A DNA stretch of 64,000 nucleotides, taken from Somniosus microcephalus (taxonomy: Eukaryota). Under the pieces are notes generated by a model. The model was not told the origin of the DNA and made no database searches. It saw only the letters and a program-made list of their open reading frames with translations. Below, piece by piece: positions 13,646 to 52,660 of the stretch. Position 1 is the first letter of the stretch; each line of letters starts with the position of its first letter. The translations under genes and the position numbers were made by a program. Where the stretch lies: positions 28,210,001 to 28,274,000 of the forward strand of contig CM126220.1 of the NCBI GenBank assembly GCA_052327205.1. Direction: 5' to 3'.

Positions 13646-14404
13646 GGCCCAGAAATTCGGGCGGGGACTTCCCGCGGGTGCAAGACTCCGACCTGCACTT
13701 ACCTTGCGCGGGTCGTTGAGCTGTGGGCCCGCATGGGATTCCGATCCTGGGCCTCCTCCAACTGCCGGCGCGCAGTGCTTGTGTACCCTAGGGGCGCAGT
13801 TAGTTCGATGCGTCCCCTGGGATCACGTGGGCCATGGAGAGCCAATGGTAGCAGAGAATGCTTCATTCATAAGTTTGACAGGAAGAGCTGTCAAACCTAT
13901 AAATACTACAAGCCCCAAAACATCACTAAAATCTCAAATAAATTTTTTTTTAAATCACATTTTTAAAATAACTATAAATTACATGAAATAACTATTTTAA
14001 ACAATAATTTAAATTTTTGAAAAAGTTAATTACATTTTCTAACTGGGCTAAAAATAAACTTACCTTTCTTTAAAGTATTTAAAAATAATAAACCTGTGGA
14101 AAAAATGTTTTAATTTTAATTAATTCACCACTTACCTTGTTAAAAGCAGGCCTTGCGCCTGCTTTTTACATGTGTAACTCCTGGAGACTTATCCTCCCGG
14201 AGAAACCTGCAAAAAAAACGTAAGTTCCATGCGCACGCGCTGCCTCTCCGGCGCACGCGTTCACCTCTGAACCCTTTCCTTTAAGGGAACGGAAGTTCCG
14301 GTTTCCCGCGCATACGCAGTGCATGCATGAAACCGTCACTTCCATTGGGCTTACGGGTGAGTACCCCATGCGTACTCACCCGTGGAGACCCGAATTTCTG
14401 GGCC
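13646..14404. mobile_element. Non-autonomous DNA transposon (PIF/Harbinger-like MITE), copy 1
   Basis: 16-bp perfect TIR GGCCCAGAAATTCGGG...CCCGAATTTCTGGGCC; 3-bp TSD AGT (13643-13645, 14405-14407); closely similar copy at 22154. Confidence 0.88.
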
Positions 14405-15629
14405 AGTGTATTTTATCGCTTCTGGACCCTGAGTTTGAATCTAGCTTAGATGAAGATTGGATGCCTCCTCCCTATAATGTCTGTAAATGCCCTGAATTAA
14501 ATGTGATAATGTACACTCAGCCTAGATTTTAGATAATGAGTGTTCAAGGCACAGAACTGTCTAGTTTTTCAGCACAGTTAGTGCAATCCCATTAGTCTAC
14601 GCCTTATACATGCCTGGTTCCAGCCATGGACTTAAACAAAGGTAGTATGGAATAGAAATGTTATATTGCTTCACCAGGACATGCAGGAGTGGACTTGACT
14701 CAACGTATTACACAACAGCCCTGATTATATGAGGGTTTGTGAAGGTCATTTGCGTTAAAGAAATGTAACTGGTAGGACATAGGTCATAACTGTTTTAAAT
14801 AAAAGAAAAACCAGGTGCTGTGTGGATTAGACACTGATCTTTCACTTCTGGGGACAAGGGATGAATCCATCGTGGACTGATGGGATGAAAGCCTACTGTC
14901 TATAAGGCATGACCTGATTTGCCAGTCTCAATTCAGTTTCTCATGGGCATGGGCCCACACACAGAATTGCTCACAGTTTGGCACTCAGCATTCTCATTCA
15001 GAGAGGCTGCAGGATGGGTGATGCGCAGAATGGAAACCTCACACTGGTTGAGACAGAGGGAGCTTTATTCTCCATCTGACTATACTATACATGATGGAGA
15101 AGTGGACATAAAATGTAGGAAAATGTTCCATTCCCCAGGATGTCCATTCTTCACCCTGACGAAAACAAAAATCCTTTATGACAAAGTTGAATTGCACACT
15201 TGACACATGGAAAGAAGGGAGCATGCTCACCTTGGGCCATTGTAGTGCATCACAACTAAAGAGTGGGTCGGTTCTCTTTTAAACAAGTCTATTTCTTTTG
15301 TGGGATAAATTGGCCCGGGCTCCCAGTCCTTGCATTCGCCTAAGAGCCCCTGTTATGAAATGCTTATGTACGATCTTTGGATGAGGACAAGATCAGGCTG
15401 GGCTGAAATGCCCCACAAAATCAAATGAACTGCTAATATTGACCGTCTTAAGCACCCAAATAAAAAATGACCACTTTGGGGAAGGGATCAGAAGGCTGCC
15501 AGCGGTTGTAGAACCAATGCCCCAGCACCAATCAGTGGCTTCATGAGAAAATTGGGAAATCCAAATAAAAGTGCAGTGTCTTACACTGACTGACTTCTCT
15601 GCACTCTTCTTTGTGTGTTTTTTTCCCAG

Positions 15630-22153: not shown

Positions 22154-22916
22154 GGCCCAGAAATTTGGGTCGGAGGCTTCCTGCGGGTGCAAGCCTCCGA
22201 CCTGCACTTATCTAGCGCGCCAGCCTTTGTGCTGTGGGCCCCCGTGGGATTCCGATCCTGGGCCTCCTCCAACTGCCGGCGTGCAGTGCTTGCGTATCCC
22301 AGGGGCGCAGTTAGTTCGATGCGTCCCCTGGGATCACGTGGGCCATGGAGAGCCAATGGTAGCAGGGAATGCTTCATTTACAAATTTGACAGGAAGGGCT
22401 GTCAAACCTATAAATACTATAAGCCCCAAAACATCACTATATCTTCAAATAATTTTTTTTTTAAATCACATTTTTAAAATAAACTATAAATTACATGAAA
22501 TAACTTTTAAACAATAATTTAAATTTTTGAAAAAATTAATTACATTTTCTAACAGGACTAAAAATACATTTACCTTTCTTTAAAGTATTTAAAAATAATA
22601 AACCTGTGGAAAAAATGTTTTAATTTTAATTAATTCACCACTTACCTTGTAAAAAGCAGGCCTTACGACTGCTTTTTACATGTCTAACTTCTGGAGACTT
22701 ACCCTCCCGGGAAAACCTGCAAAAAAAAGCGTAAGTTCGATGCGCACGCGCTGCCTCTCCTGCGCACGCGTTCGACTTCTGAACCCCTTCTTTCAGGGGA
22801 ACGGAAGTGCCGGTTTCCCGCGCATGCGCAGTGCATGCACGAAACCGGCACTTCCATTGGGCTTACGGGTGAGTACCCCATGCGTACTCACCCGTGGAGA
22901 CCCGAATTTCTGGGCC
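22154..22916. mobile_element. Non-autonomous DNA transposon (PIF/Harbinger-like MITE), copy 2
   Basis: TIR GGCCCAGAAATTTGGG...CCCGAATTTCTGGGCC; 3-bp TSD GTT (22151-22153, 22917-22919); same orientation as copy 1. Confidence 0.88.
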
Positions 22917-25900
22917 GTTATATTTTGTTAATGCGCCTTTTAGACAGCACTTCTAAGTTATAATACATTTATCATAAGACCAGAGCCCAGTAACCCAGCT
23001 GAAATGTTGAGGTACAGCTGCAGAGGAGGTAGAAGTTATCAATGACTTCAATCTGGCTTCTTGATCTTGCCAAGTGTGCATAACCCGAAAACACTCCCTA
23101 AGTTACTACTGCTTACTTACTCATGATGCAATCTGGTAGCATAAGAGGAAAATCATTGCTCTCCATGTTTAAAGAGTAAAAATATGTGTTATGTATGTAA
23201 AGGCAGGTTTGTAAATATTCCTTAAATTACTTCCATTTGAAATGGCAAAAGAATTTGCAGATCATTAAAAGGCATCTGCAGTGAACATGAGGGCATTTCC
23301 CCATCTCGCTACAGTAATCAACCAGCAGTGACACTGTAACTTTGGAAGGGTGCTGTAACGCCTGTTTTGTTACCAGCTGAAGATCTGAGGTGTGTCTTTC
23401 AATACCAAAATTCACCAACTTTCTTACTAAAGAAATCTGTTTGAAAATTTGTGCAGTGATATTGATAGGTACATATCAGAATCAGAATGGGAATGAGGGG
23501 TAGCACATTTGGTGGAGTATGTAATAGTCATCCAATCAGAATCCTCCAATTTGCATCCTAAATGTTGTTTGAGTCACCGTCATCCGAAATCTCTAGTGAG
23601 ATCATGGTTGAAACAATCACTTTTGATGAAGGGAAACAAACCAGGATTCCCTTTACATTCTAACCTAAAACTCCTGGGGCCAGAAATCTGCAGGGTCGGG
23701 GAGGTCTCTTCATTGAAATGCGAATGGCGGGCACCTGGGCCAGTAGAGGGCATGTCTAGGGCACCCATCTGACCCAGAGGCTGGAAAGTAGGAAGTCTGC
23801 TGCCAGCCCAGGGGATGCTAGTGCCCCCCCACCCCCCCTACTCTCCAGAAACAAAGCCAAACTATCCTCAAGTCACAATCCAGGCTGGCCGGTCCAGTAC
23901 TTAGAGTTTCACTTTACGAACCGGCCGCCTGTGATCCACCAGACTGGTGCATGGCTAGGTCCATGAAGTCATAGTATTGAGAGTAATCCAGCCCTGCTCC
24001 TGCTATGCTGCTGGCCTTGTTTGTGACATGCTTTGGCTTCACCATAAACCAGGCTCGGTGGAATATTCAATGTAAGGTCGGGACCTGGTGTATCCAGGTT
24101 CTGGGCTAATTTGAGGCCCTTCCAGAGCACTCCCACTAGGGTTACAGCAGGAGTGTGCCAAAAGAGCTGTGGATTTCCAGCCCCCCCCCCCCCCGTCTTT
24201 GTAGACAGAATTTCTCAGTCACAATCATTAATGCAGTTGTAGGCATTGACGTCATAGAATTCAGTGATAATCTCAGTCTGTACAAACCAAAAATGCAGCC
24301 AAAGTACCCCATACATGGTTCATATACAATATTACACTGCAGCAGGGAATGATTTCACAGCTATGATCCAACCTCTGAATTCCAGTGGTTATAAACTGAT
24401 TTACGTTTCATTCTTGCAATGTCTAATATCATTGAAACCCCTCAGTTGCGTTTACACTCTGTACCCCTCAGATATATATTGGTTTAAATTATCATTTTAA
24501 ATTTAATGTTTAGAACTCAGAACAATTATTTTACTGAAAATCATGGCCTATAGTGAAGGATATTAAATAAAGGGAAAATTGTAAACGTTGGAACTGTGAA
24601 ATAGAAACAAAATGCTGGAACTACTGAACAGGTTGGTCAGTATCTGTAAATAGAAAGGATAGGTTATGACATTTCTGATATGTGTTCATCACCAGTACAG
24701 GATATCATTGAGGTTGAAAAGAACTGGAGAGAAAATGAGGTAAATGAGGAAGTAATGATTGGGTTACACAAAGTTTGGATTTTTAAAACAGTTATTACAT
24801 GCACACAATAATCTTGATTTACAAGAGGTTCTGTTATGCTATTGACCCCAATGGTCATAATGCAGATCTTCCAGTTCCCCCTCATATTGAGGGTGACACT
24901 CATTTCTGAACTATCATTCAAGTTTCTAATGTACCCACATTTATTGACTGGTATTATTACTATTTACTGGTATACTGTGTATGAAACAAGGCAAATGAAG
25001 AGTTTCTGATAACCCAAATCTTCTCTGTGGGTCTAAAGTAGTCATTGAATCCCCAACAAATTTAGCTACACCTTGTGCCATTGTCACTTTGTTATGTTTA
25101 CATCCTCATAACATTGTCCACAGGTTGGAAGGTTCAGTGGTGCTCCTGGTGCAAAATAAAATATTGCTGCATACACCCTCACAACACTCTCCAATTGGCT
25201 GCCCTATAGTTGATGAGGATAATCCTGTGGAACACTTTATAAGCCTGCATTACAGAGTAGGGGATAATGTGATAGAATCAGATCTGGATTGGCAAAGGAT
25301 GAGGGAAAATAACCAACCACCATCAATAGGCCTCTTCATCAGTATCTGTTGATTTTTAATCTGGAAGATGCTGATTTTAACAGACCAAGGGCTGATAAAG
25401 AAATGTAACTAAATGTGCCATCCTTCAACTTGGGCTCATCTCACATCGCACACACTTTACAACAAAGAGGTTTATTCTAAAAGATATCCCAAAAGCCAGT
25501 CTGAAATAACTTCCACTCAGATATAACACACGGATGCCAACTCTCACTTGTTTGGAGTGAGTCTGACTCCTATAAATAAGCACATCCCCATCTGTTTGAT
25601 TGGGTTTCCAACCCATTTCACTCTTTTTGATCATATAATTCTCACTCCTAATATTTTCCACGCATCTAGACCTGTCATACCTAGCCATTTCCTAACCCTG
25701 CAGGCAAAAAGACATGTATCAGTAATTGAGGGATAACGTTGAGCAGTGAGATGAGCTTGCACCTAAGCTTCAAAACACCATCAGCTGGGTAAGTGGGTAG
25801 GTCTTTCTGTTGAAATCTAATTTAATTGCGTTCATTGTGAAAGTCATACTGGCAGGTCATAGCAATGAAGCAGTGGCTTATGGCATCAGCTTGTGGCAAA

Positions 25901-34769: not shown

Positions 34770-37700
34770 TGGGGAAATTTAAAAACAGAACGTGTCAGGA
34801 AGGGACAGAAGGTATGGAGTAAAAGGTAAAGTAGTAAAAGGGGAAAAAACAGGAACTAAGTGTCACAAAACATATTTGAAAGTTCTTTATCTGAATGCAC
34901 GTAGCATTCGTAACAAAATGAATGAGTTAACGGCACAAATAACTACATATGGGTATGATCTTGTGGCCATTACAGAAACATGGCTGCAGGGTGACCATGA
35001 CTGGGAATTAAACATACCAGGTTATTTAACAATCAGGAAGGACAGGCAGGAAGGGAGGGGAGGTGGGGTGGCTATGTTAATAAAGGAAGGAATCACTATA
35101 ATACAGAGAAATGATATTGGGTCAAAGGAGCAGGATAGTGAAACAGTTTGGGTAGAGATAAGGAATAATAAGGGGAAAAAAAACACTAGTGGGCGTAGTC
35201 TATAGGCCTCCAAACAGTTGCAACTCTGTTGGACGGAGTATTAATCAGGAAATAGTTGAGGCTTGTAATAAGGGAACAGCTATAATTATGGGGGATTTTA
35301 ACTATCATATTAACTGGACAAATCAAATTGGGCAGGGCTGCCTTGAGGATGAGTTCATTGAGTGTATTAGGGATGGGTTTCTTGAGCAGTATGTAACTGA
35401 ACCGACCAGGGGGCAAGCAACCTTAGATTTGGTCCTGTGTAATGAGACAGGATTAATTAAAAATGTCCTAGTAAAGGATCCCCTTGGAATGAGTGACCAT
35501 AACATGGTTGAATTCCATATTCAAGTAGAGGGTGAGAAGGTTGGATCTCAAACAAGCATGCTGAGCTTGAATAAAGGAGACTATGAAGGTATGAGAGCGG
35601 AATTGATTAGAGTGGACTGGGAAAATAGATTAAAGGGTAAGACGGTACATGATCAGTGGTGTACATTTAAGGAGTTATTTTACAACTTCCAAAAAAAATA
35701 TATTCCACTGAGGAAAAAAGGGTGTAAAAGAAAAGATAGCCATCCGTGGCTAAGTAAAGTAATTAAGGATAGTATCCAACTAAAAACAAGGGCATATAAG
35801 GTAACCAAATCTAGTGGGAGGATAGAAGATTGGGAAGTCTTTAAAAGGCAGCAAAAAATAACTAAAAGATTGATTAAGAAAGGGAAGATAGATTATGAAA
35901 GTAAATTAGCAAAAAATATAAAACAGATAGCAAAAGTTTCTATAGTTATATAAAAAGAAAAAGGGTGGCTAAAGTAAATGTTGGTCCCTTAGAGCATGAG
36001 ACCGGGAAATTAATGGTGGGAAACATGGAGATGGCAAAAACGCTGAACAAATATTTTGTATCAGTCTTTACGGTAGAGGACACTAAGAATATCCCAACAC
36101 TGGACAAACGGGGCTCCAGGGGGAGAGGAGCTAAATACGATTAAAATCACTAAGGAAGTGGTACTTGGTAAAATAATGGGACTCAAGCCGAATAAATCCC
36201 CTGGACCTGATGGCTTACATCCTAGGGTCTTGAGGGAAGTGGCGGTAGGGATTGTGGATGCATTGGTAATAATTTTCCAAAACTCCCTGGACTCAGCAAA
36301 GGTCCTGGCAGATTGGAAAACTGCTAATGTAACACCCTTATTTAAAAAGGGTAGTAGGCAGAAGACTGGAAACTATAGACCTGTTAGCCTAACATCTGTG
36401 GTTGGTAAAATGTTAGAGTCCATTATTAAGGAGACAGTAACGGGACATTTGGATAAACATAATTTAATAGGACAAACTCAGCATGGTTTCATGAAGGGGA
36501 AGTCATGTTTGACAAATTTGCTTGAGTTCTTTGAGGAAGTAACATACAGGGTGGTTAAAGGAGAACCAGTGGACGTAGTGTATTTAGACTTCCAAAAGGC
36601 ATTTGACAAGGTGCCACACAAAAGATTATGGCTCAAGATAAAAAATCACGGGATTGGGGGTAATATTCTGGCGTGGGTGGAGGATTGGCTCTCTAACAGA
36701 AAGCAGAGAGTTGGGATAAATGGTTCATTCTCAGACTGGCAACCAGTAACTAGTGGTGTTCTGCAGGGGTCAGTGCTGGGTCCCCAACTCTTTACAATCT
36801 ATATTAATGATTTGGAGGAGGGGACCGAGTGTAACATATCAAAGTTTGCAGATGATACAAAGATGGGAGGGAAAGTAGTGAGTGAGGAGGACATAAAAAA
36901 CCTGCAAAGTGACATAGACAGGCTAAGTAAGTGGGCAGAGATTTGGCAGATGGAATACAATACTGGAAAGTGTGAGGTTATGCACTTTGGCAGGAAAAAT
37001 CATAGAGCAAGTTATTATCTTAATGGCAAGAAACTGGAAAGTACTGTAGTACAAAGGGATCTGGGGGTCCTGGTGCATGAAACTCAAAAAGCTAGTATGC
37101 AGGTGCAGCAAGTGATTAAGAAGGCCAATGGAATGTTGGCTTTTATTGCTAGGGGGATAGAATATAAAAACAGGGAGGTATTGCTGCAGTTATACAAGGT
37201 ATTGGTGAGACCGCACCTGGAATACTGCATACAGTTTTGGTGTCCATACTTAAGAAAATACATAGTTGCTCTCAAGTCAGTACAAAGAAGGTTCAGTCGG
37301 TTAATCCCGGGGATGAGGGGGTGGTCATATGAGGAGATTGGGACTCTACTCATTGGAGTTCAGAAGAATGAGAGGCGATCTTATTGAAACATATAAGATT
37401 GTGAAGGGGCTTGATCGGGTGGATGCGGTGAGGATGTTCCCAATGATGGGTGAAACTAGAACTAGGGGGCATAATCTTAAAATAAGGGGCTGCTCTTTCA
37501 AAACTGAGATGAGGAGAAACTTCTTCACTCAGAGGGTGGTAGGTTTGTGGAATTTGCTGCCCCAGAAAGCTGTGGAAGCTGCATCATTAAATAAATTTAA
37601 AACAGAAATAGATAGTTTCCTAGAAGTAAAGGGAATTAAGGGTTACGGGGAGCGGGCAGGAAATTGGACATGAGTCTAGGTTCGGAATGGTCATAGCCCT

Positions 37701-38597: not shown

Positions 38598-39762
38598 TTC
38601 ATAGAAACATAGAAGATAGGAGCAGGAGTAGGCCATTCGGCCCCTCGAGCCTGCTCCGCCATTCAGTGAGATCATGGCTGATCATCCAAACTCAGTACCC
38701 TGTCCCTGCCTTCTCCCCACATCCCTTTAGCCTTAAGAAATATATCTAACTTCTTCTTGAATATATTTAATGAATTGGCCTCAACTGCCTTCTGTGGTAG
38801 AGAATTCCACAGGTTCACCACTCTCTGGGTGAAGAAATTCCTCCTCATCTCTGTCCTAAATAGCTTACCCCTTATCTTTAGACTGTGACCCCTGGTTCTG
38901 GATTCCCCCGCCATCGGGAACATCCTTCCTGCATCTAGTCTGTCTAGTCCTGTTAGAATTTTATAAGTTTCAATGAGATGCCCTCTCATTCTTCTAAACT
39001 CCAGCGAGTATAAGCCCAATCGACCCAATCTCTCCTCATACGTCATTCCTGCCATCCCAGATATCAGCCTGGTGAATCTTCGCTGAACTCCTTCCATGGC
39101 AAGAACATCCTTCCTCAGATAAGGCGACCAAAACTGCACACAATACTCGAGGTGTGGTCTCACCAAGGCCTTGTATAACTGCAGCAAGACATCCTTGTTC
39201 CTGTACTCAAACCCTCTTGCTATGAAGGCCAACATACCATTTGCCTTCTTAACCGCCTGCTGCACCTGCATGCTTACCTTCAGCGACTGGTGCACAAGGA
39301 CACCCAGGTCTCGTTGCACTTCCCCTTCTCCCAATCTATTGCCGTTCAGATAATAATCTGCCTTCCTGTTTTTGCCACCAAAGTGGATAACCTCGCATTT
39401 ATCCACATTATACTGCATCTGCCATGCATCTGCCCAATCACCCAACCTGTCCAAATCATACTGGAGTTTCTCAGCATCCTCCTCACAGCACACACGCCCA
39501 CCCAGCTTTGTGTCGTCTGCAAACTTGGAGATATTACATCTAGTTCCCTCGTCTAGATCATTAATATATATTGTGAATAGCTGAGGTCCTTGGACCGATC
39601 CCTGCGGTACCCCACTAGTCACTGCCTGCCACTCGGAAAAAGACCCGTTTATTTCAACTCTTTGCTTCCTGTCTGCCAACCATCTCTCTATCCAAGTCAG
39701 TACCTTGCCCCCAATCCCATGTGCCTTAACTTTACACGCTAATCTCTTATGCAGGACCTTAT
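38598..39762 (-). mobile_element. 5'-truncated CR1 LINE with open RT C-terminal frame
   Basis: ORF 38672-39679(-), 335 aa, with SGVPQGS, FADD and LVRPHLEYCVQFWSP; tail ctatcttctatgtttctatg. Confidence 0.95.
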
Positions 39763-42159
39763 TTCCAGATCCTACTTAGCGTGCACGACCTACCCGCCAT
39801 ATTGGAGGCTTAGGAGGATGTTGAGTGTCCGCAAAACGGGCGCTGTGCGGCTGAATTTCGAGGTCTTACTGTCTAGGCTTCCAATATAAAGAAATGCTGC
39901 TTGTTTAAGGTAAAGATCACTCTCGGCTACGGGTCCCTACGCCCAAAGAAAAATGCCACTTAAAATTTGCTTTGCCTGCTGAACTGAGTCAATGCTTTCT
40001 CAACAATGCCAACATTCCAACTCAAGAGCAGAAATAACAAACTATGAAACAGTCAAAATTTATAAATCAGCAAACTAGCGCCAGAAATGCAATTTTTTGA
40101 GACTTCTTGAGGCTGTGTTTTGCTTTACAGTACATTACAACAGGAAAGTGATTAAAGCTGCATAGAAACTTTTTCACAGTCTCACCGAGGCTGAAATATT
40201 ACATTTTTTTGGGCTGGTTCTGACCGGACTGAAGTCAAATACGCCAATCTAAAATAGAGACTAAATTCTGTTGGAACTGGGTGTTGGCAGAGGAAGCACC
40301 CGCTCCCACACTGGTGCACGTATGCAAAACCAGTTGTCCCCATTTACAACAACAACTTGTATTTATATAGCGCCTATAACGTAATAAAATGTCCCAAGGC
40401 GCTTCACAGGAGTGTTATAAGACAAAAAGTTACATGAGCCTGTAGAAAAGAAGGGTAATTTGTTTGCATGTCTTGTCAAACCAGGAAGTGGTTGAGCTTA
40501 CAGATTTTGACTGTCCATTACCTTTGCCTGAAATATCAATTTTAACTGGAGTGAATCTTTTCTCAGCTATGGTGCTAAGAAAATATTCTGCAAACTCTGA
40601 CGAGTAGGCCAATAACCAGAGGTCGTAGTTTTTTAAATCATTGGCAAAAGATCTAGAGGGGAGATGAGAATTTGTTTTCACTCGGAGAGTTGTCACTCTA
40701 CCTGAAAAGGTGATGGAAGCTGATTCCATTAATAATTTTAAAAGGGAGTTGGACAGGTACTTCAGGATGAGGAATTTGCAGGGTTATGGACAAAAAGCTG
40801 GGATGTGGGACCAAGCACGACTGCTCTTTCAAAGAGCCAGCACTGGCACGACGGGGCAAATGGCCTCCTTCTCTGCTGTAAGTTTCTATGATTCCATGAA
40901 ACTGCCTTTCAGAAGTTTCAGGCAAAAGAACCAGAGGGGAGTTGAGATTTTCTTTATGAATTACATGTGTGGCTTTTTCCCTATGCGCAGTCCTTTACAC
41001 TTATCGGCATTAAAGTCCATCTGTCATTGGTCTCCTCATTTACCAATTTTGTCCAACTCATTCTATAATCTATGAGCTGCCCGAAGTTCACTGGCCCATC
41101 TTCAAATTTGACCACTTTGCATCAAGTTTGTGAATCCAAGTAATTTATGTAAATCAGAAACAGTAGTGATCCCCAAACCAAGCTCTGGGGCACCCAACTC
41201 AGTACTTCCCCCGACCCCAGCGTAACTCCTCAAATGAGTATTCATTGGCTGAAGGGTAGAAAGCAATTTCTTATCCATTCCCTAATGTTTTGAGTTCTTT
41301 CACAGAATTTTGTCAAATGCCTTTTGGAGGTTTAGGTACACTTCATTGCAGACTTGGGTTGCCACTTCTTCAATGAAGTTTGGGAGGTGGGTCAGGCAGG
41401 ATCCTTCCTTTCTGAATCCATGTTAACTGTTGTGTACTTGGTTATTATTGTACAAATAATATTACATTTACTCCTGATAATCAATTCCATTATTTTATAT
41501 GAATGGAAATAAGACTAATGTACATGACGGTTTTGTCCTCCTTTTCGAATATGGCCACCAGTCTATTACTTCCCTAGTTTCCAGTAATTTTCAGTGTTTA
41601 GTCTCTTTCTGGGATAAATACCATCTCTCCCCGAGGATGTATTTGTCTTTGAAAATGGAGGGCATAACAACCCGGGCTGACTGGTCTCACCGAACATCAT
41701 AATCAGTGCACTTTCCAGTAGGACTCACTGGATAGGAATCAGGGCCACTGGTTGATTTCTCCCCACCCCGATCGTTCCTAACTCAGAAGTGTTGAGACCA
41801 ATGGTAACCCCTCAAGTACATCCCCTTCCCCAGCTAAGATAAGCTAACACAACGCACGCTAAGAATTGAAGCTGTACTCTCCTTTACTGTCACTGGGACA
41901 CTGGACAGGCATGCACCAGCTGAGCCATGGTGGGAAGCTGGTTATTACTTGTAATATTAAAATTCTCACCCTTATTTACAGATCCCTCCATGGCCTCGCC
42001 CCTTCCTATCTCTGTAACCTCCAGCCCTACAACTCTCAGACCTCTGTGCTTCTCCAATTCTGGCCTCTTGCGCATCTCGGATTTTAATCGCAGCACCATT
42101 GGTGCCTGTGCCTTCAGCTGCCTTGGTTCTAAACTCTGGAATACCCTCCCATGAGACTT

Positions 42160-43570: not shown

Positions 43571-44211
43571 GCCGCTGGTAACGGGCCTAAAGAGTGGACA
43601 CTGGAGCCGGACCATGTGGATGTCTCGGGAGCCGGATCAGAGCTCGCTCCGTGGCCTCAGCTGGTGTGGGTGGGTGTTGGGCTGTGAGGAGGGGGGAGGA
43701 GCTGGTGATTGCAGCCAGCAGATGCTGTGAACAACAGCCGCATTATTCAGGCGGAAAGTTCTTGTGCTGCTTTTTGCAGCTTCAATTTGTATCAAAATAA
43801 CAAAAATCAGCAACAATTCCCCCTTCCCTGGAGCCACCACATGTTCCTGGGTGCGCACAGTATGGCCATAGCATAGATGGTACAGCACTATTGCAGTTGC
43901 CATAGCTACGACACTGACTGAATGGCGTATGGAGTAGAACACACGCAAGATTTGAGATTCGATGTCAAAAAAGCGTAATTACTGCTTCAACAATCTGCTT
44001 CAAAAGAAGCAACAAAGTCTTCATGCCAGTTTTCTTGAAACAAGGAAATAGCACAGCAATCAATAATAAATCTGTGAAAAATAAATGACTTGGGCAGTGA
44101 TGTGAAGAGAATATCTGAATAAGCTGTACAGACAGTGGGTACGAAAAACTGATGTTCCTGAATAGTGTTATTGTATTATTTATAAACGGTGTCTGAATCA
44201 ATGTTCCCTGT

Positions 44212-44510
44212 TGATGTGCCTCAATAATTCCGAGACTCGAAGGTAGCAGAACAAAACAAGGCTTTTATTAACTTAGAACGAAACACGTAAGCGAGAGAGA
44301 TTTCGTCCTTCTGGAGATTGGGGCTAGACTGAAGCTAGCTTACAAACGGGGCCAGGTATGGGCGGAGCCCTACACACAGCACATTCCAGCACATTCCAGT
44401 ATACAATACAGCACATTCCAGTACACAATACAATGAGGTCTGGGGGAAGGGAAATGACACTGAAACCGATCTCAGTCACAGGCAGTGATGAATGGAAATA
44501 TTTCATCACA
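44212..44510 (-). repeat. 3' LTR (299 bp)
   Basis: Matches 48307-48573 except for 2 substitutions seen and a 32-bp tandem indel. Confidence 0.95.
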
Positions 44511-44520
44511 TTCACCCCTT

Positions 44521-47500
44521 CTATAGATTTAGTCTGTTCGGGGGTTTGATAGTCCTCTGCGACCGACGTGGCTGTTGCGGTGCCGCGGGTGTCGGCTGGG
44601 TGTCCCCAGTAGCCTCCTGGGTCTCTGCCGGGGGTGCCGCCAGGGTTGTTGAAGGGGTAGTTGGTGGGGGTACCGTTGGTTGGTGTTCTTCCGGGGGTGA
44701 TGAAAGAGTAGTGGGTGGGTAAGAGTTGCTGTGATCGTCGTTGCCGCTATTGCCGTGGTTGTTGTCGATGCCGGCTGGGGCGACGTCTTTTATGGACACG
44801 GTGTCCTCCCTTCCGTCGGCGTGCCGGACATATGCGTATTGGGGGTTGGCGTGGAGTAGGTGTACTGGCTCCACGAGAGGGTCCGTCTTGTGGCCCCTCA
44901 CATGCCTTCGCACGAGTACCGGACCTGGGGTGGAGAGCCATGACGGCATGGATACGCCTGAGGTGGATTCCCGGGGAAAGACAAACATTCGTTCATGAGG
45001 CGTGGTATTAGTGGCCGTACACAATAGCGACCGTATCGAATGGAGCACATCCGAGAGGACTTCCTGCCAGCGGGAGATAGGGAGGCCCTTGGTCCTTAGA
45101 GCTAGAGTGACTGCTTTCCATACTGTCCCGTTCTCTCGCTCCACTTGGCCGTTACCCCGGGGGTTGTAGCTGGTGGTACGGCTCGTGGCGATCCCCCTGG
45201 ACAGCATGTACTGGCGTAGCTCTTCACTCATGAAGGACGCCCCCCTATCCGTATGGATGTAGCTCGGCATACCGAACAGGCAGAACAGGCTGTTGAGGCA
45301 TTTAATGACCGTGGCGCTGGTCATGTCTGGGCAGGGGAAGGCGAATGGGAACCGGGAGTATTCGTCCACAATGTTCAGGAAGTAAACATTGCGGTCGACG
45401 GACGGGAGGGGGCCCTTGAAATCTAAGCTGAGCCGCTCAAAGGGCCGTGTAGCTTTGATTAAGTGGGCTCTATCTGGGCGGTAGAACCGAGGCTTGCACT
45501 CAGCGCAAGTGCGGCAGTTCCTGGTCAGGGACCGAACTTCCTCAATCGAGTAGGGTAAGTTACGGGACTTTATGAAGTGGAACAGCCGCGTGACCCCTGG
45601 GTGGCAGAGGTCGTTGTGGAGGGTCTGTAGCCGATCCCCGGTGGCGCTGGCACACATCCCTCGTGAGAGGGCGTCAGGGGATTCGTTAAGGGCCCCTGGC
45701 CGGTAAATGATGTCGTACTCGAAGGTGGAGAGCTCGATCCGCCACCTAAGAATCTTATCATTTTTAATCTTCCCCCTCTGTTTATTATTGAACATAAACG
45801 CTACCGACCGCTGGTCGGTAAGTAGGGTGAAGCGTTTGCCGGCTAGGTAGTGGCGCCAGTGGCGCACTGCCTCCACGATGGCTTGGGCCTCCTTTTCCAC
45901 GGAGGAGTGTCTGATCTCGGGCCCTTGGAGGGTCCTCGAGAAGAAAGCTACGGGCCGCCCCGCCTGGTTGAGGGTGGCCGCCAAGGCGAAGTCAGACGCA
46001 TCACTTTCCACTTGAAATGGAGTGTTCTCGTCCACTGCCTGTAGCGTGGCCCGCTCAATATCCTGCTTAATGCTTTTGAAGGCGGCGTGGGCCTCAGCAG
46101 AGAGCGGGAAAGAGGATGCTTTCAAGAGGGGGCGGGCTTTGTCGGAGTAGTTGGGGACCCATTGGGAATAATAAGAAAATAACCCCAGGCATCTTTTCAG
46201 GGCTTTGGGAGTGTTGGGCAGGGGCAGCTCCCGTAGGGGGCGCAATCGGTCGGGGTCTGGTCCGATTTCCCCATTCTCCACCACGCTGCCAAGTATGCAG
46301 AGGCGCGTGGTGTTGTAAACGTACTTGTCCTCGTTGTAGCTGAGGTTGAGTTTTTGTGCGGTTTTCAGGAACCTCTCGAGGTTCGAGTCGTGATCCTGCT
46401 GGTTGTGACCGCAGATGGTGACGTTGTCGAGGTAGGGGAAGGTTGCCTGCAAGTGGTGGTCATCGACCATGCGGTCCATCTCCCTCTGGAAGACCGAGAC
46501 CCCACTCGTCACCGCAAAGGGGACTCTGAGGAATTGGTAGAGGCGTCCGTTCGCCTCGAAGGCGGTGTACGGGCAGTCCTCTGGTCTGATAGGGAGCTGG
46601 TGGTACGCTGACTTGAGGTCGATGGTGGAGAACACCCGGTATTGGGCGATTTGGTTCACCATTTCTGATATGCGGGGTAGCGGGTAGGCGTCTAGTAGGG
46701 TGTACCTGTTGATCGTTTGACTATAGTCGATCACCATCCGTTTCTTCTCGCTACCCCTTACCACTACCACTTGGGCGCGCCACGGGCTGTTGCTGCGTTC
46801 AATAATGCGCTCTTTCAGGAGCCTGTCTACCTCGGTCGCGATAAACCGCCTGTCCTCCCAGCTGTACCTCCTGCTTTTGGTCGCTATTGGCCGGCAGTTA
46901 GGGGTAAGGTTCGCGAATAGCGAAGGCGGCTTTACCTTCAGGGTAGCCAGACCGCACACTGTGAGGGGCGGCTGGGACCAACCGTACTTGAGCGTGATGC
47001 TTTGGTGGTTGCACTGGAAATCCAGGCCCAAGATCACGCTCGCACATAGGTTCTTCATGATTAATACTTTAAAATTATCATATACAGTTCCGTTAACGCA
47101 CAATTGTACCGTGCAGTAACCCAGAATGGTCGATGTCTGGGTTTTGTCAGCCATAGAGATGGTACCCTGAGTAGGGACCTCCTTTAGGGAGAGTTGTTGT
47201 GCCAGTTCTGGGTGGATAAAGCTCTCCGTGCTTCCACTGTCAATTAAGCATTTAACCCGGCACCCGTTTACCTCGATGTCCACCATTGATCTGGATAGCG
47301 GGTGCGGCCTGGTCTGGTCCACTGTGACCGATGCCACTGTAGGGCCCTGATCGATACAAGATGGCGTCCACGCTGTCTGCTCACAAGATGGCGGACCCCA
47401 CGAGGTCGGGCAAGATGGCGTCCAAGGTGGCCGCTCCCACGGCGCACACGCGGCGGTGGCGGGTTTTCTGGCGGGGTTCCCTCTGCACACCTTCCCGAAG

Positions 47501-48279
47501 TGCCCCTTCTTACCGCACTTAAAGCAGGTGGTGCCTTTCGCCGGGCACAGGTTCCTGGTGTGCTTTGGCTGCCCGCAGAAGTAGCAGTTGGGTCCCTGAC
47601 GTGTCGCGGCTGTCGTAGGGCTTCTGGGGGGAGAGCGGGGCCCAGCCGGTGTCGGGCTGTCGGGCGGGGAAGATGCCTTCCAAGATGGCGGCGCCCTCGG
47701 TGCACACGTGGCGGTGTGGACGGCGCGGGCTGAAGAGTAGGCGTCCGAGTTTCTCTGGGCCACATCCAGGGATCGCGCGGTGTCCGCAGCCTGTTTCAGG
47801 TCCAACCCCGTTTTTTCCAGCAGTCTTTGCCGGATGTAAGTGGAGCTGAGGCCTGTGATGAAGGCATCGTGAACAAGCTCGTCAGTGTACACCGCGGCTT
47901 TTACATCTCGGCACTTGCAGTCTTTGCCAAGCATTTTCAGGGTGCTTAGGAACTCCTCCACCGATTCCCCAGGTCGCTGTGCGCGGGTGGCGAGCAGGTG
48001 CCTAGCATACACCTCATTCGTAGGCTGCTGGTAATGTGCCTTTAAGATGTCGCAGGCGGCCAGGTACGTCTCGGTGTCTTGGATGAGGGGGTAAACCCGG
48101 TGGCTTACCCAATTCCGCAGAATTCCGAGTCTCATCCTTGCAGCGTCCGTAGCGTCTTTGACGGCTGCGGAATTGTCCAGGAAGAATTCCATACACTCAA
48201 ACCAGTGTCCGAAGCGTGCTGATGCGTCCGGAGCATGTTGATCCAAATCCAAACGTTCGGGTTTCAGGAGTTGATCCAT
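44521..48279 (-). CDS. Gypsy gag-pro-RT-RNaseH-integrase polyprotein (1252 aa)
   Basis: Zinc knuckles CYFCGQPKHTRNLC and CFKCGKKGHFGKVC; protease LIDSGS; RT RMVIDY, IDLKSAYHQ, YLDN; RNase H SDASD, EKEA; integrase HHCC, LDFKGP, HTDRG, GQVERENG. RT-RH-IN order is Gypsy-type. Confidence 0.97.
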   Translation of the reverse strand: MDQLLKPERLDLDQHAPDASARFGHWFECMEFFLDNSAAVKDATDAARMRLGILRNWVSHRVYPLIQDTETYLAACDILKAHYQQPTNEVYARHLLATRAQRPGESVEEFLSTLKMLGKDCKCRDVKAAVYTDELVHDAFITGLSSTYIRQRLLEKTGLDLKQAADTARSLDVAQRNSDAYSSARAVHTATCAPRAPPSWKASSPPDSPTPAGPRSPPRSPTTAATRQGPNCYFCGQPKHTRNLCPAKGTTCFKCGKKGHFGKVCRGNPARKPATAACAPWERPPWTPSCPTSWGPPSCEQTAWTPSCIDQGPTVASVTVDQTRPHPLSRSMVDIEVNGCRVKCLIDSGSTESFIHPELAQQLSLKEVPTQGTISMADKTQTSTILGYCTVQLCVNGTVYDNFKVLIMKNLCASVILGLDFQCNHQSITLKYGWSQPPLTVCGLATLKVKPPSLFANLTPNCRPIATKSRRYSWEDRRFIATEVDRLLKERIIERSNSPWRAQVVVVRGSEKKRMVIDYSQTINRYTLLDAYPLPRISEMVNQIAQYRVFSTIDLKSAYHQLPIRPEDCPYTAFEANGRLYQFLRVPFAVTSGVSVFQREMDRMVDDHHLQATFPYLDNVTICGHNQQDHDSNLERFLKTAQKLNLSYNEDKYVYNTTRLCILGSVVENGEIGPDPDRLRPLRELPLPNTPKALKRCLGLFSYYSQWVPNYSDKARPLLKASSFPLSAEAHAAFKSIKQDIERATLQAVDENTPFQVESDASDFALAATLNQAGRPVAFFSRTLQGPEIRHSSVEKEAQAIVEAVRHWRHYLAGKRFTLLTDQRSVAFMFNNKQRGKIKNDKILRWRIELSTFEYDIIYRPGALNESPDALSRGMCASATGDRLQTLHNDLCHPGVTRLFHFIKSRNLPYSIEEVRSLTRNCRTCAECKPRFYRPDRAHLIKATRPFERLSLDFKGPLPSVDRNVYFLNIVDEYSRFPFAFPCPDMTSATVIKCLNSLFCLFGMPSYIHTDRGASFMSEELRQYMLSRGIATSRTTSYNPRGNGQVERENGTVWKAVTLALRTKGLPISRWQEVLSDVLHSIRSLLCTATNTTPHERMFVFPRESTSGVSMPSWLSTPGPVLVRRHVRGHKTDPLVEPVHLLHANPQYAYVRHADGREDTVSIKDVAPAGIDNNHGNSGNDDHSNSYPPTTLSSPPEEHQPTVPPPTTPSTTLAAPPAETQEATGDTQPTPAAPQQPRRSQRTIKPPNRLNL

Positions 48280-48306
48280 AGTGTTGAAAAAATAAGTTAA
48301 TAAAAT

Positions 48307-48573
48307 TGATGTGCCTCAATAATTCCGAGACTCGAAGGTAGCAGAACAAAACAAGGCTTTTATTAACTTAGAACGAAACACGTAAGCGAGAGAGATGTCG
48401 TCCTTCTGGAGATTGGGGCTAGACTGAAGCTAGCTTACAAACGGGGCCAGGTATGGGCGGAGCCCTACACACAGCACATTCCAGTACACAATACAATGAG
48501 GTCTGGGGGAAGGGAAATGACACCGAAACCGATCTCAGTCACAGGCAGTGATGAATGGAAATATTTCATCACA
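48307..48573 (-). repeat. 5' LTR (267 bp)
   Basis: Minus strand TGTGATG...GCACATCA; contains GC box CTCCGCCC and AATAAA. Confidence 0.95.
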
Positions 48574-48606
48574 CCTGTAATTTTTTTTTGGGTGCGCGGC
48601 CCATTC

Positions 48607-50632
48607 ATAAGAACATAAGAAATAGGAGCAGGAGTAGGCCATACGGCCCCTCGGGCCTGCTCCGCCATTCAATAGGATCATGGCTGATCTGAATCTGGAC
48701 TCACATCCACTTCCCTGCCCTCTCCCCGTAACCCCTAATTCCCTTATCTGCTAGGAAAATGTCTATCTCCATTTTAAATTTATTTAATGTTGCAGCTTCC
48801 ACAGCTCTCTGGGGTAGCAAATTCCATAGATTTACTACCCTCTGAGTGAAGAAGTTTCTCCTCATCTCAGTTTTGAAAGGGCAGCCCCTTATTCTAAGAT
48901 TATGCCCCCTAGTTCTAGTCTCACCCATCAGTGGAAACATCCTCCCCGCATCCACCCGATCAAGCCCCCTCACAATCTTATATGTTTCGATAAGATCGCC
49001 TCTCATTCTTCTGAACTCCAATGAGTAGAGTCCCAACCTACTCAACCTTTCCACATACGGCAACCCCCTCATCTCTGGAATCAACCGAGTGAACCTTCTC
49101 TGAACCGCCTCGAGAGCAAGTATATCTTTTCTTAAATATGGAAACCAAAACTGCACGCAGTATTCCAGGTGTGGCCTCACCAATACCCTGTATAACTGCA
49201 GCAAGACTTCCCTGTTTTTATACTCCAACCCCCTTGCAATAAAAGCCAAGATTCCATTGGCCTTCCTGATCACCTGCTGCACCTGCATACTAACTTTTTG
49301 TGTTTCATGTACCAGGACCCCCAGATCCCTTTGTACTGTAGCACTTTGCAGTTTCTCTCCATTTAGATAATAACTTGCTCTTTGATTTTTTCTGCCAAAG
49401 TGCATAACCTCACACTTTCCAACATTATATTGCATCTGCCAAATCTCTGCCCACTCACTTAGCCCGTCTATGTCCTTTTGCAGGTTTTTTATGTCCTCCT
49501 CACTCACTGCTTTCCCTCCCATCTTTGTATCGTCGGCAAACTTGGATATGTTGCACTCGGTCCCTTCCTCCAAATTGTTAATATAGATTGTAAAGAGTTG
49601 GGGTCCCAGCCCTGACCCCTGCGGAACACCACTAGTTACTGATTGCCAGCCCGAGAACGAACCATTTATCCCAACTCTTTGTTTCCTGTTAGATAGCCAA
49701 CCTTCCACCCATGCCAGTATATTACCCCCAATCCCGTGATTTTTTATCTTGATCAGTAATCTTTTGTGTGGAACCTTGTCAAATGCCTTCTGGAAGTCCA
49801 AATACACTACATCCACTGGTTCCCCTTTATCCACACTGTACGTTACATCCTCAAAGAATTCGAGCAAATTTGTCAAACATGACTTCCCCTTCGTAAAACC
49901 ATGCTGACTCTGTCTTATTAAATTATGTTTATCCAAATGCTCTGTTACTGTTTCCTTAATAATGGACTCCAACATTTTGCCAACCACAGATGTTAGGCTA
50001 ACTGGTCTATAGTTTCCAGCTTTTTGTCTACTTCCCGTCTTAAATAAGGGTGTTACATTAGCAGTTTTCCAATCTGCCTGAGTCCAGGGAGTTCTGGAAA
50101 ATGATCACCAATGCATCCACAATTCCTACCGCCACTTCTCTCAAGACCCTAGGATGTAGGCCATCAGGTCCGGGGGATTTATCCACCTTAAGTCCCATTA
50201 TTTTACTGAGTACCATCTCCTTAGTGATTTTAATCGTGTTTAGCTCCTCCCCCCCCCACATTGCCCCCTGTTTGTCCAGTGTTGGGATATTTTTAGTGTC
50301 CTCTACTGTAAAGACTGATACAAAATATTTGTTCAGTGTCTTTGCCATCTCCATGTTCCCCACCACTAGTTTCCCGGTCCCATCCTCTAAGGGACCAACG
50401 TTCACTTTAGCCACCCTTTTTCTTTTTATATAGCTGTAGAAATTCTTGCTATCTGTTTTTATATTTTTTGCTAGTTTACTTTCATAATCTATCTTCCCTT
50501 TCTTAATTAATCTTTTAGTTATTGTTTGCTGGCTTTTAAATGCTTCCCAATCGTCTATCCTCCCACTAGATTTGGCTAATTTATATGCCCTTGTTTTCAG
50601 TCGAATACTATCCTTTATTAATTTACTAAGCC
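48607..50632 (-). mobile_element. 5'-truncated CR1 LINE
   Basis: ORFs 48701-49987 and 50058-50414(-) with RT motifs; highly similar to the 34770-38117 copy. Confidence 0.95.
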
Positions 50633-50902: not shown

Positions 50903-52660
50903 GCAACAACTTGTATTTATATAGCGCCTTTAACATAGTAAAACGTCCCAAGGCGCTGCCCAGGAGTATTTTAAAACAAAAAATTTGACACCGAGCCACA
51001 TAAGGAGAAATTAAAGCAGGTGACCAAAAGCTTGGTCAAAGAGGTAGGTTTTAAGGAGCGTCTTAAAGGAGTAAAGAGAGGTAGCGAGGCGGACAGGTTT
51101 AGGCAGGGAATTCCAGAGCTTAGGGCCTAGGCAACAGAATGCATGGCCACCAAAGGTTGAGCGATTATAATCAGGGATGCTCAAGAGGGCAGAATTAGAG
51201 GAGCGCAGGTATCTCGGGGGGTTGTGGGGCTGGAGGAGATTACAGTGATAGGGAGGGGCGAGGCCATGGAGGGATTTGAAAACAAGGATGAGAATTTTGA
51301 AATCGAGGCGCTGCTTAACCGGAAGCCAATGTGGGTCAGTGAGCACAGGGGTGATAGGTGAACGGGACTTGGTGCGAATTAGGACACGGGCAGCCGAGTT
51401 TTGGATGACCTCAAGTTTACGTAGGGTAGAAAGTTGGAGGCCAGCCAGGAGTGTGTTGGAATAGTCAAGTCTAGAGGTAACAAAGGCATGGATGAGGGTT
51501 TCAGCAGAGGATGAGCTGAGGCAATGGCAGAGACGGCCGATGTTACAGAGGTGGAAGTAGGCGGTCTTTGTTATGCTGCGGATATGTGGTCGCAAGCTAA
51601 TTTCAGGGTCAAATATGACACCAAGGTTGCGAACAGGGTGGTTCAGCCGCAGACAGATGTTAGGGAGAGGGATGGAGTCAGTGGCTAGGGAACGGAGTTT
51701 GTGGCGGGGACAGAAAACAATGGCTTCGGTCTTCCCAATATTTAACTGGAGAAAATTTCTGCTCATCTAGAACTGGATGTCGGAGAAGTAATCTGACAAT
51801 TTAGAGATCGTGGAGGGGTCAAGAGAAGTGGTAGTGAGGTAGAGCTGGGTGTCGTCAGCGTACATATGGAAATTGACGCTGTGTTTTCGGATGATGTCGC
51901 CAAGGGGCAACATGTTGATGGGAAATAGGAGGGGGCCAAGGATAGATCCTTGGGGGACACCAGAGGTAACGATGTGGGAGCGGGGAGAGAAGCCGTTGCA
52001 GGTGATTCTCTGGCTCCGATTAGATAGATAAGAATGGAACCAGGCGAGTGCAGTTTCACCCAGCTGGACTACGGTGGACAGGCGTTAGAGAAGGATGGAG
52101 TGGTCAACCGTATCAAAGGCTGCAGACAAGTCAAGAAGGATGAGGAGGGATAGTTTACCTTTGTCACAGTCACAAAGGATATAATTTGTGACTTTGATGA
52201 GAGCCGTTTCGATACTGTGGCAAGGGCGGCAACCTGATTGGAGGGATTCAAACATGGAATTGTGGGAAAGATGGATTTGGGAGGCGACGACACGTTCAAG
52301 GACTTTGGAGAGGAAAAGAAGGTTGGAGATGCGGCGGTAGTTTGCAAGGACAAAGGGGTCAAGGGTTGGTTTTTTGAGGAGAGGGGTGATGACGGCAGAT
52401 TTGAGGGAGAGGGGGACAGTACCTGAGGAGAGAGAACCGTTAACAATGTCAGCTAACATGGGAGCCAGAAAAGGAAGTTGGGTGGTCAGCAGTTTGGTGG
52501 GAATGGGGTCGAGGGAGCAGGAGGTGGGTCTCATGGACAAGATGAGCGTGGAGAGGTCACGAGGGGAGATTGGGCGAGAAACTGGAGAAAGATGCAAGTT
52601 CAGGGTTAGGGCAGGGGGGGAACCTTAGAGGAAGTTTGTCCCGGTGAAGTGGCAGAGGCA
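50903..52660 (-). mobile_element. L2 LINE (RT region, frameshifted)
   Basis: ORFs 52085(-) (LDPIPT, NYRRISNL, DLSAAFDTVDH) and 51011(-) (LQLNIGKTE, SRLDYSN, HWLPV); (GTT)n tail. Confidence 0.92.

Follow-up and report, generated by a model that had tools for sequence, protein, structure and literature searches.

A Ty3/Gypsy element on the minus strand

The window, i.e. the whole stretch of 64,000 nucleotides analysed here, contains a complete Ty3/Gypsy LTR element of 4.4 kb on its minus strand; all coordinates given below for this element refer to that strand. Comparison of the LTRs delimited a 5' LTR of 267 nt with TG...CA ends (48307..48573) and a 3' LTR of 299 nt (44212..44510), which differ from each other by 2 substitutions and a 32-nt insert. 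The element is flanked by a 5-bp target-site duplication, ACAGG (upstream copy 48574..48578, downstream copy 44207..44211), and a polypurine tract (44511..44522) precedes the 3' LTR. The direct LTRs with TG...CA ends, the target-site duplication and the polypurine tract are Ty3/Gypsy hallmarks, and the element is young. One uninterrupted open reading frame of 1252 aa (44521..48279) encodes gag-pol, in which a domain search identified gag with CCHC knuckles, protease, reverse transcriptase (RT), RNase H and integrase, in the Gypsy order. The RT is closest to that of Ty3, and the best match among solved structures is Ty3 Gag-Pol (E 2.4e-55). The leader between the 5' LTR and the gag ATG measures 27 nt and contains no TGG.

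Other repeats are found in the window. LINE remnants, recognized as broken open reading frames with RT domains, are located at 35162-37387 (+), where an endonuclease domain is present besides RT, at 38672-39775 (-), at 48701-50104 (-), with an end just outside the Gypsy 5' LTR, and at 52085-52624 (-). Two repeats of ~760 nt (about 13650-14415 and 22155-22925), ~92% alike and 8.5 kb apart, each possess short terminal inverted repeats and internal palindromes; this pair is likely a non-autonomous DNA transposon rather than a pair of LTRs.

An earlier note on this DNA, made from the sequence alone, had seen no chromodomain in the element and judged that it was not a chromovirus, and our analysis agrees on both points. 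No Chromo match was obtained in the 1252-aa protein or among 120 homologues; the same model gives 150 scored matches elsewhere in the genome. Chromodomain-bearing elements were located in the same genome and 12 regions were fetched, 7 of which had usable LTR pairs and 5 none. The RT-RNase H of the window element is 30-32% identical to that of these chromoviruses, which stand on a separate long branch (SH-aLRT 99) in quick trees with a midpoint root, the second of which comprised 30 of 63 rows; this places the lineage relative to the chromoviruses of the same genome. The closest named RT-RNase H homologues come from a catshark and a ray, which makes a cartilaginous fish the likely host; others, at ~50% identity, belong to a nematode, an isopod and a damselfly, the comparison being of proteins only. 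RTs of the same clade as the window element were also seen within two of the chromovirus regions (L199 and L202), so that members of the lineage can lie inside or next to other LTR elements.

A covarying duplex between leader and LTR

The 13 nt at the primer-binding-site position (48293..48305) are the exact reverse complement of an LTR motif (48358..48370) that includes AATAAA, a putative poly(A) signal (48359..48364). The motif is the 5' arm of this duplex, hereafter P1, and a candidate self-primer; the 3' arm begins 1 base past the 5' LTR, after a single unpaired A (48306). The leader was also compared with dinucleotide-shuffled LTRs, and in 10,000 of these its longest complement did not exceed 11 nt (0/10,000 reached 12). 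The copy of the motif in the 3' LTR (44263-44275) has no adjacent partner strand. The earlier note had described a primer position devoid of TGG, a perfect 13-nt pairing with the AATAAA-bearing motif and a partner strand confined to the 5' end; all three observations stand, and all its coordinates proved correct. Taken as a whole, the 181-nt region has an unremarkable folding energy (z -1.29): what stands out is where the helix lies and how it covaries, rather than its energy.

The pairing is kept throughout the family of the window element, in 30/30 loci including the window (29 over 13 nt, one over 12), and the genome contains 3475 exact junctions of LTR end and primer site of this family (control, 0). 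A pattern that describes sister families and excludes the family of the window gave 3021 genome matches (control, 0). Among sister-family loci, 28/30 carry a perfect 13-mer whose sequence is different and compensated. One locus (L028), in which two families of the lineage lie within 3.5 kb, holds a second family, in which LTR motif and primer site both differ from those of the first and match each other. Further loci were collected from metagenome data (80), from bacterial genome bins (8) and from a more distant family of the same genome (30). The lineage was thus also seen on eight contigs of bacterial genome bins (L141-L148), where it is likely due to contamination by host or animal DNA. Viral contigs yielded no relatives, as none of 18 pattern hits was confirmed.

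Compensatory covariation in related elements, on which the earlier note had made its proposal depend, was strongly borne out. In order to avoid circularity, an unbiased test was anchored on the gag start; enough upstream DNA was present at 132 of 138 sites, which formed 33 groups. In 27/33 groups the pairing spans 11-18 nt and is matched by no more than 1 of 200 shuffles. The six misses comprised two groups with a G-U pair within the duplex (L114, L137), two from a family in which the leader measures 100 nt and the duplex lies beyond the 40 nt scanned, and two broken copies. In this long-leader family, 20/28 copies pair over at least 11 nt. Its loci (L211-L240) belong to the same lineage, with a leader of 100 nt against 16-45 nt elsewhere and the duplex still at the LTR end.

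Pairing, second-helix and U5-leader helix counts were based on 29 families, obtained from the 33 groups by removing two duplicates (one of L076 and one of the L214 family), L100, which has no intact 5' end, and L237, which has an insertion before gag. These 29 families have 27 distinct 13-mers, each matched by its own LTR, and TGG is present in 0/29. On average 12.76 of 13 positions pair with the family's own LTR against 8.13 across families, the best of 10,000 permutations reaching 9.59; the value of 12.76 is inflated since the register was chosen by maximising the 13 pairs, and the gag-anchored test is the unbiased one. The edge of the duplex is sharp, with pairing in 29/29 families at position 13 and in 15/29 at position 14. 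Positions 12-13 pair in 29/29 families with three to four pair types, whereas positions 14-18 form 2.00 of 5 pairs, barely above the 1.63 found across families. The spacer base is A in 26/29 families and is complementary to the base after the motif in 0/29. Compensatory changes affect nearly every position, among families whose RT-RNase H identity with that of the window goes down to about 47-55%; as the families are related, these counts are not independent events. Rare primer-site variants were also examined: 4/4 of those fetched are uncompensated in their own LTR, and two more loci turned out not to vary in the 13-mer. These variants are consistent with decay after insertion and lend no support to rewriting of the site from the LTR motif. 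The pairing is real and lineage-wide.

A second helix, P2, begins at the base after the motif, inside U5, typically as RCC...GGY. It reaches at least 4 bp in 22/29 families, compared to 8.3 expected from shuffles that preserve its first four bases, and its first pair is G-C, G-U or A-U in seven families each. In the window, P2 pairs 48352..48357 (5' arm, from the first base past the candidate primer) with 48313..48318 (3' arm) and is present in the minimum-energy fold. Because P2 starts right after P1, the predicted cut, between 48358 and 48357 at the 3' edge of the candidate primer, would fall at the junction of the two helices. P1 is predicted to form locally, with a mean probability of 0.73-0.99 in the 29 families.

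Transcription start, priming and poly(A) masking

The 5' LTR of the window element contains a GC box (48455..48464), which we take to be Sp1-like and whose counterpart in several sister families lies ~90 nt upstream of the duplex, and a degenerate TATA-like box (48434..48441) 71 nt upstream of the duplex, a spacing matched by TATAAAG at 70-71 nt in sister families. Overall, in families of the same genome a GC box together with a TATA (or TATA-like) box precedes the duplex by 70-92 nt, by patterns picked after the sequences had been viewed; most other families have no TATA by simple pattern. A box at this distance predicts a start ~40-60 nt before the primer, which would then be internal and carry a 5' tail. 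No TATA-like box was found in the lineage 30 nt upstream of the duplex, where the chromoviruses have one, so that the Tf1 geometry may not hold. A terminal primer is suggested by the sharp edge of the 13-bp duplex and by AG at positions 11-10 in 23/29 families, which we assume to be an initiator-like context. We lean slightly towards a start ~40-60 nt upstream of the primer in the families of this genome, with a primer that would be internal, unlike that of Tf1. In four LTRs (L028, L033, L050, L055) TGAGTCA/TGACTCA, presumably an AP-1-like site, also follows the TATA box at ~20 nt; sister families keep it, though its orientation may differ.

RNA reads from two runs of a related organism were mapped to 48000-48600. 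On both strands they continue past the two LTR ends into flanks that vary, so that read-through dominates. Coverage extends to gag and is biased towards one strand in one of the runs; near the motif, neither starts nor poly(A) ends were seen to pile up in these two runs. The depth on one strand falls sharply at 48273-48314 in both runs, for which divergence, indels or a stem are possible causes.

The earlier note had proposed either self-priming without a tRNA, or a structural switch concealing the poly(A) signal of the 5' LTR, or both. The first part is favoured over a pure switch, and masking is retained as a plausible side effect in 20/29 families. The sequences make it most likely that a non-chromoviral animal Gypsy lineage primes itself independently of tRNA, with a fold distinct from that of Tf1/sushi and with masking as a probable side effect.

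It is unlikely that the duplex is a mere switch and that the primer comes from elsewhere. The partner strand does exist at the 5' end alone, AATAAA or ATTAAA does lie inside the duplex in 20/29 families, where masking of the 5' signal is plausible, and repression of the 5' signal by structure is generally assumed for HIV-1 (PMC5961354). However, 9/29 families retain the duplex, with its 1-nt offset and its 13 bp, although no canonical signal falls inside it, and in L061, L063 and L144 a canonical signal lies downstream of the duplex, outside P1; priming thus explains the conservation better than masking does, although the point is softened by weaker variant hexamers, which we believe some of the nine families to carry. 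Moreover, a fixed 1-nt offset and a fixed length of 13 bp are needed by priming and not by a switch, which would also leave the element without a primer site. The RTs of Ty3 and CaMV cut RNA/DNA hybrids 11-13 nt from the polymerase site (PMC11363490), and the closeness of this distance to the 13 bp of P1 is suggestive only.

Self-priming could also use another copy of the motif, at the RNA's 3' end or in a second packaged RNA, instead of a fold-back of the 5' end. The same motif is present in both LTRs, so that covariation is blind to which copy pairs, and it would stand at both RNA ends if it lies upstream of the poly(A) site. Against this, the local fold already provides P1 at the probabilities given above, and cutting the 3' copy of the same molecule would presumably remove the stretch required for strand transfer; we hold this route to be quite improbable.

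Priming by a tRNA is the rule for LTR elements (PMC7472051), and a host tRNA, a tRNA fragment or another small RNA might prime here as well, the match to the LTR being incidental. The host tRNA set was sampled only: among 31 distinct genes of three types the longest complement to the site was 8 nt, a weak test since the Rfam tRNA search mostly returned one tandem array. TGG is nevertheless absent from 29/29 families, and the 27 different site sequences follow their own LTRs, which makes a tRNA primer very unlikely. The array itself consists of tRNA-Cys genes with a period of ~1.6 kb (G000:C24, about 42.90-43.07 Mb, L150-L178).

Finally, chance complementarity of AT-rich sequence inherited by descent, to which the composition of the motif and the unremarkable folding energy might point, is refuted by the LTR shuffles, none of which reaches 12 nt, by the gag-anchored test and by the 29-family covariation, with its compensation at nearly every position across distant families.

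How self-priming from P1 might proceed can be outlined by analogy with Tf1, in which the RNA's first 11 bases anneal to the primer site and RNase H cleaves after base 11 (PMC7175516), within a fold of three duplexes (PMC10085805). The 5' RNA would fold into P1 and P2, and the RNase H of the element would cut at their junction (48358/48357). From the new 3' end the RT would then copy the spacer A plus 51 nt of the LTR, giving a strong-stop DNA of 52 nt, which would be transferred to the RNA's 3' end via the short segment that separates motif and poly(A) site. Plus-strand synthesis would copy the primer and rewrite the primer site from the LTR motif, thereby keeping the complementarity. In retroviruses the plus-strand primer site is indeed copied from the primer (PMC7472051), so that a self-primer would by itself maintain LTR and site complementary. 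In the 20/29 families in which the primer holds the signal, P1 would hide the poly(A) signal in the 5' LTR only.

Going further, we tentatively suggest, though with less than even confidence, that an animal-wide Gypsy lineage evolved self-priming independently of Tf1/sushi, with an internal primer, and that the poly(A) signal excised at the junction of the two helices becomes the 3' end of the primer. One duplex of 13 bp might thus block premature 5' polyadenylation, supply the primer and remove the tRNA site that host tRNA fragments target.

Significance and comparison with known systems

Self-priming has been reported for chromoviruses (Tf1/sushi, Tcn1) and, in plants, for Copia elements of the TAR lineage (PMC6317226, PMC4600332, PMC5341516); for animal Gypsy elements, the literature examined describes it in Tf1/sushi chromoviruses, from which the present lineage is separate. 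The latter is abundant, with at least 3475 + 3021 junctions in this genome and relatives in ray, catshark, nematode, isopod and damselfly (proteins only). These observations suggest that tRNA-free priming either arose a second time or is of older descent, in a version that uses a different RNA fold. They are relevant to a proposal in the literature, according to which tRNA priming was preceded by hairpin priming, in a paper modelling LTR elements that links hairpin priming to chromoviruses (PMC3601003). Since the primer site is where 3' tRNA fragments exert silencing (PMC7472051), the lineage is also predicted to escape it. As it has no tRNA site, LTR finders that require one would score such elements as incomplete. 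Because the predicted cut site is exact and the helices covary, a short RNA would suffice to test the mechanism directly. We found no description of this pairing in the literature searched, whose scope left Repbase, GyDB and most subscription journals outside, and by term search the main texts of three surveys of animal Gypsy clades do not discuss primers (PMC6238403, PMC2871265, PMC8220671). Several known systems nevertheless share one or the other of its features.

HIV-1 primes with a tRNA. Its 5' polyA hairpin resembles P1 in that the AAUAAA of the 5' repeat is part of an RNA structure (PMC5961354), but this hairpin is local and unrelated to priming, whereas the partner strand in the present lineage is the primer site itself. 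The dictyostelid Skipper elements are likewise Gypsy elements and have a pyrimidine-rich stretch in place of TGG; unlike the present lineage, they are chromoviruses, and their source reports no complementary region in the LTR (PMC5006619). For plant TAR-lineage Copia elements (Houba, Osr-1) and for Tcn1 chromoviruses, self-priming has been predicted from the same kind of complementarity between post-LTR sequence and LTR (PMC6317226). These are Copia elements or chromoviruses of plants and fungi, in contrast to the non-chromoviral animal Gypsy lineage described here.

The closest resemblance is to Tf1/sushi, including Tf1/Tf2 of Schizosaccharomyces pombe and Tj1, which also have no tRNA site and a primer site complementary to their own LTR. 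The same genome allows a direct comparison, as its sushi-like chromoviruses showed a perfect 11-nt self-complement in 4/7 LTR pairs, with the same 1-nt offset as in the present lineage. A TATA-like box stands 30 nt above their primer, which is separated from the LTR end by ~155 nt and is far from the poly(A)-like signal; this arrangement is the geometry described for Tf1. Four of these sushi-like chromoviruses (L202, L206, L207, L209) are young, with LTRs 96-99% alike, the 11-nt self-primer and AGTAAA as poly(A)-like signal, so that two different self-priming Gypsy lineages would share the genome. The present lineage differs from Tf1/sushi by its lack of a chromodomain and by an RT-RNase H 30-32% identical to that of the chromoviruses of the same genome. 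Its duplex is 13 bp long instead of 11, stands 20-67 nt from the LTR end instead of ~155 and overlaps the poly(A) signal in most families, and its TATA-like boxes lie 70-92 nt upstream instead of 30. The U5-leader helix of the Tf1 'pretzel' was detected at p<=0.05 in 1/29 families, against 4/4 chromovirus copies (from two families); the second helix that the lineage conserves is P2 instead. Given the low RT identity and the separate branch, we conclude that the element would work like Tf1/sushi without being a member of that group.
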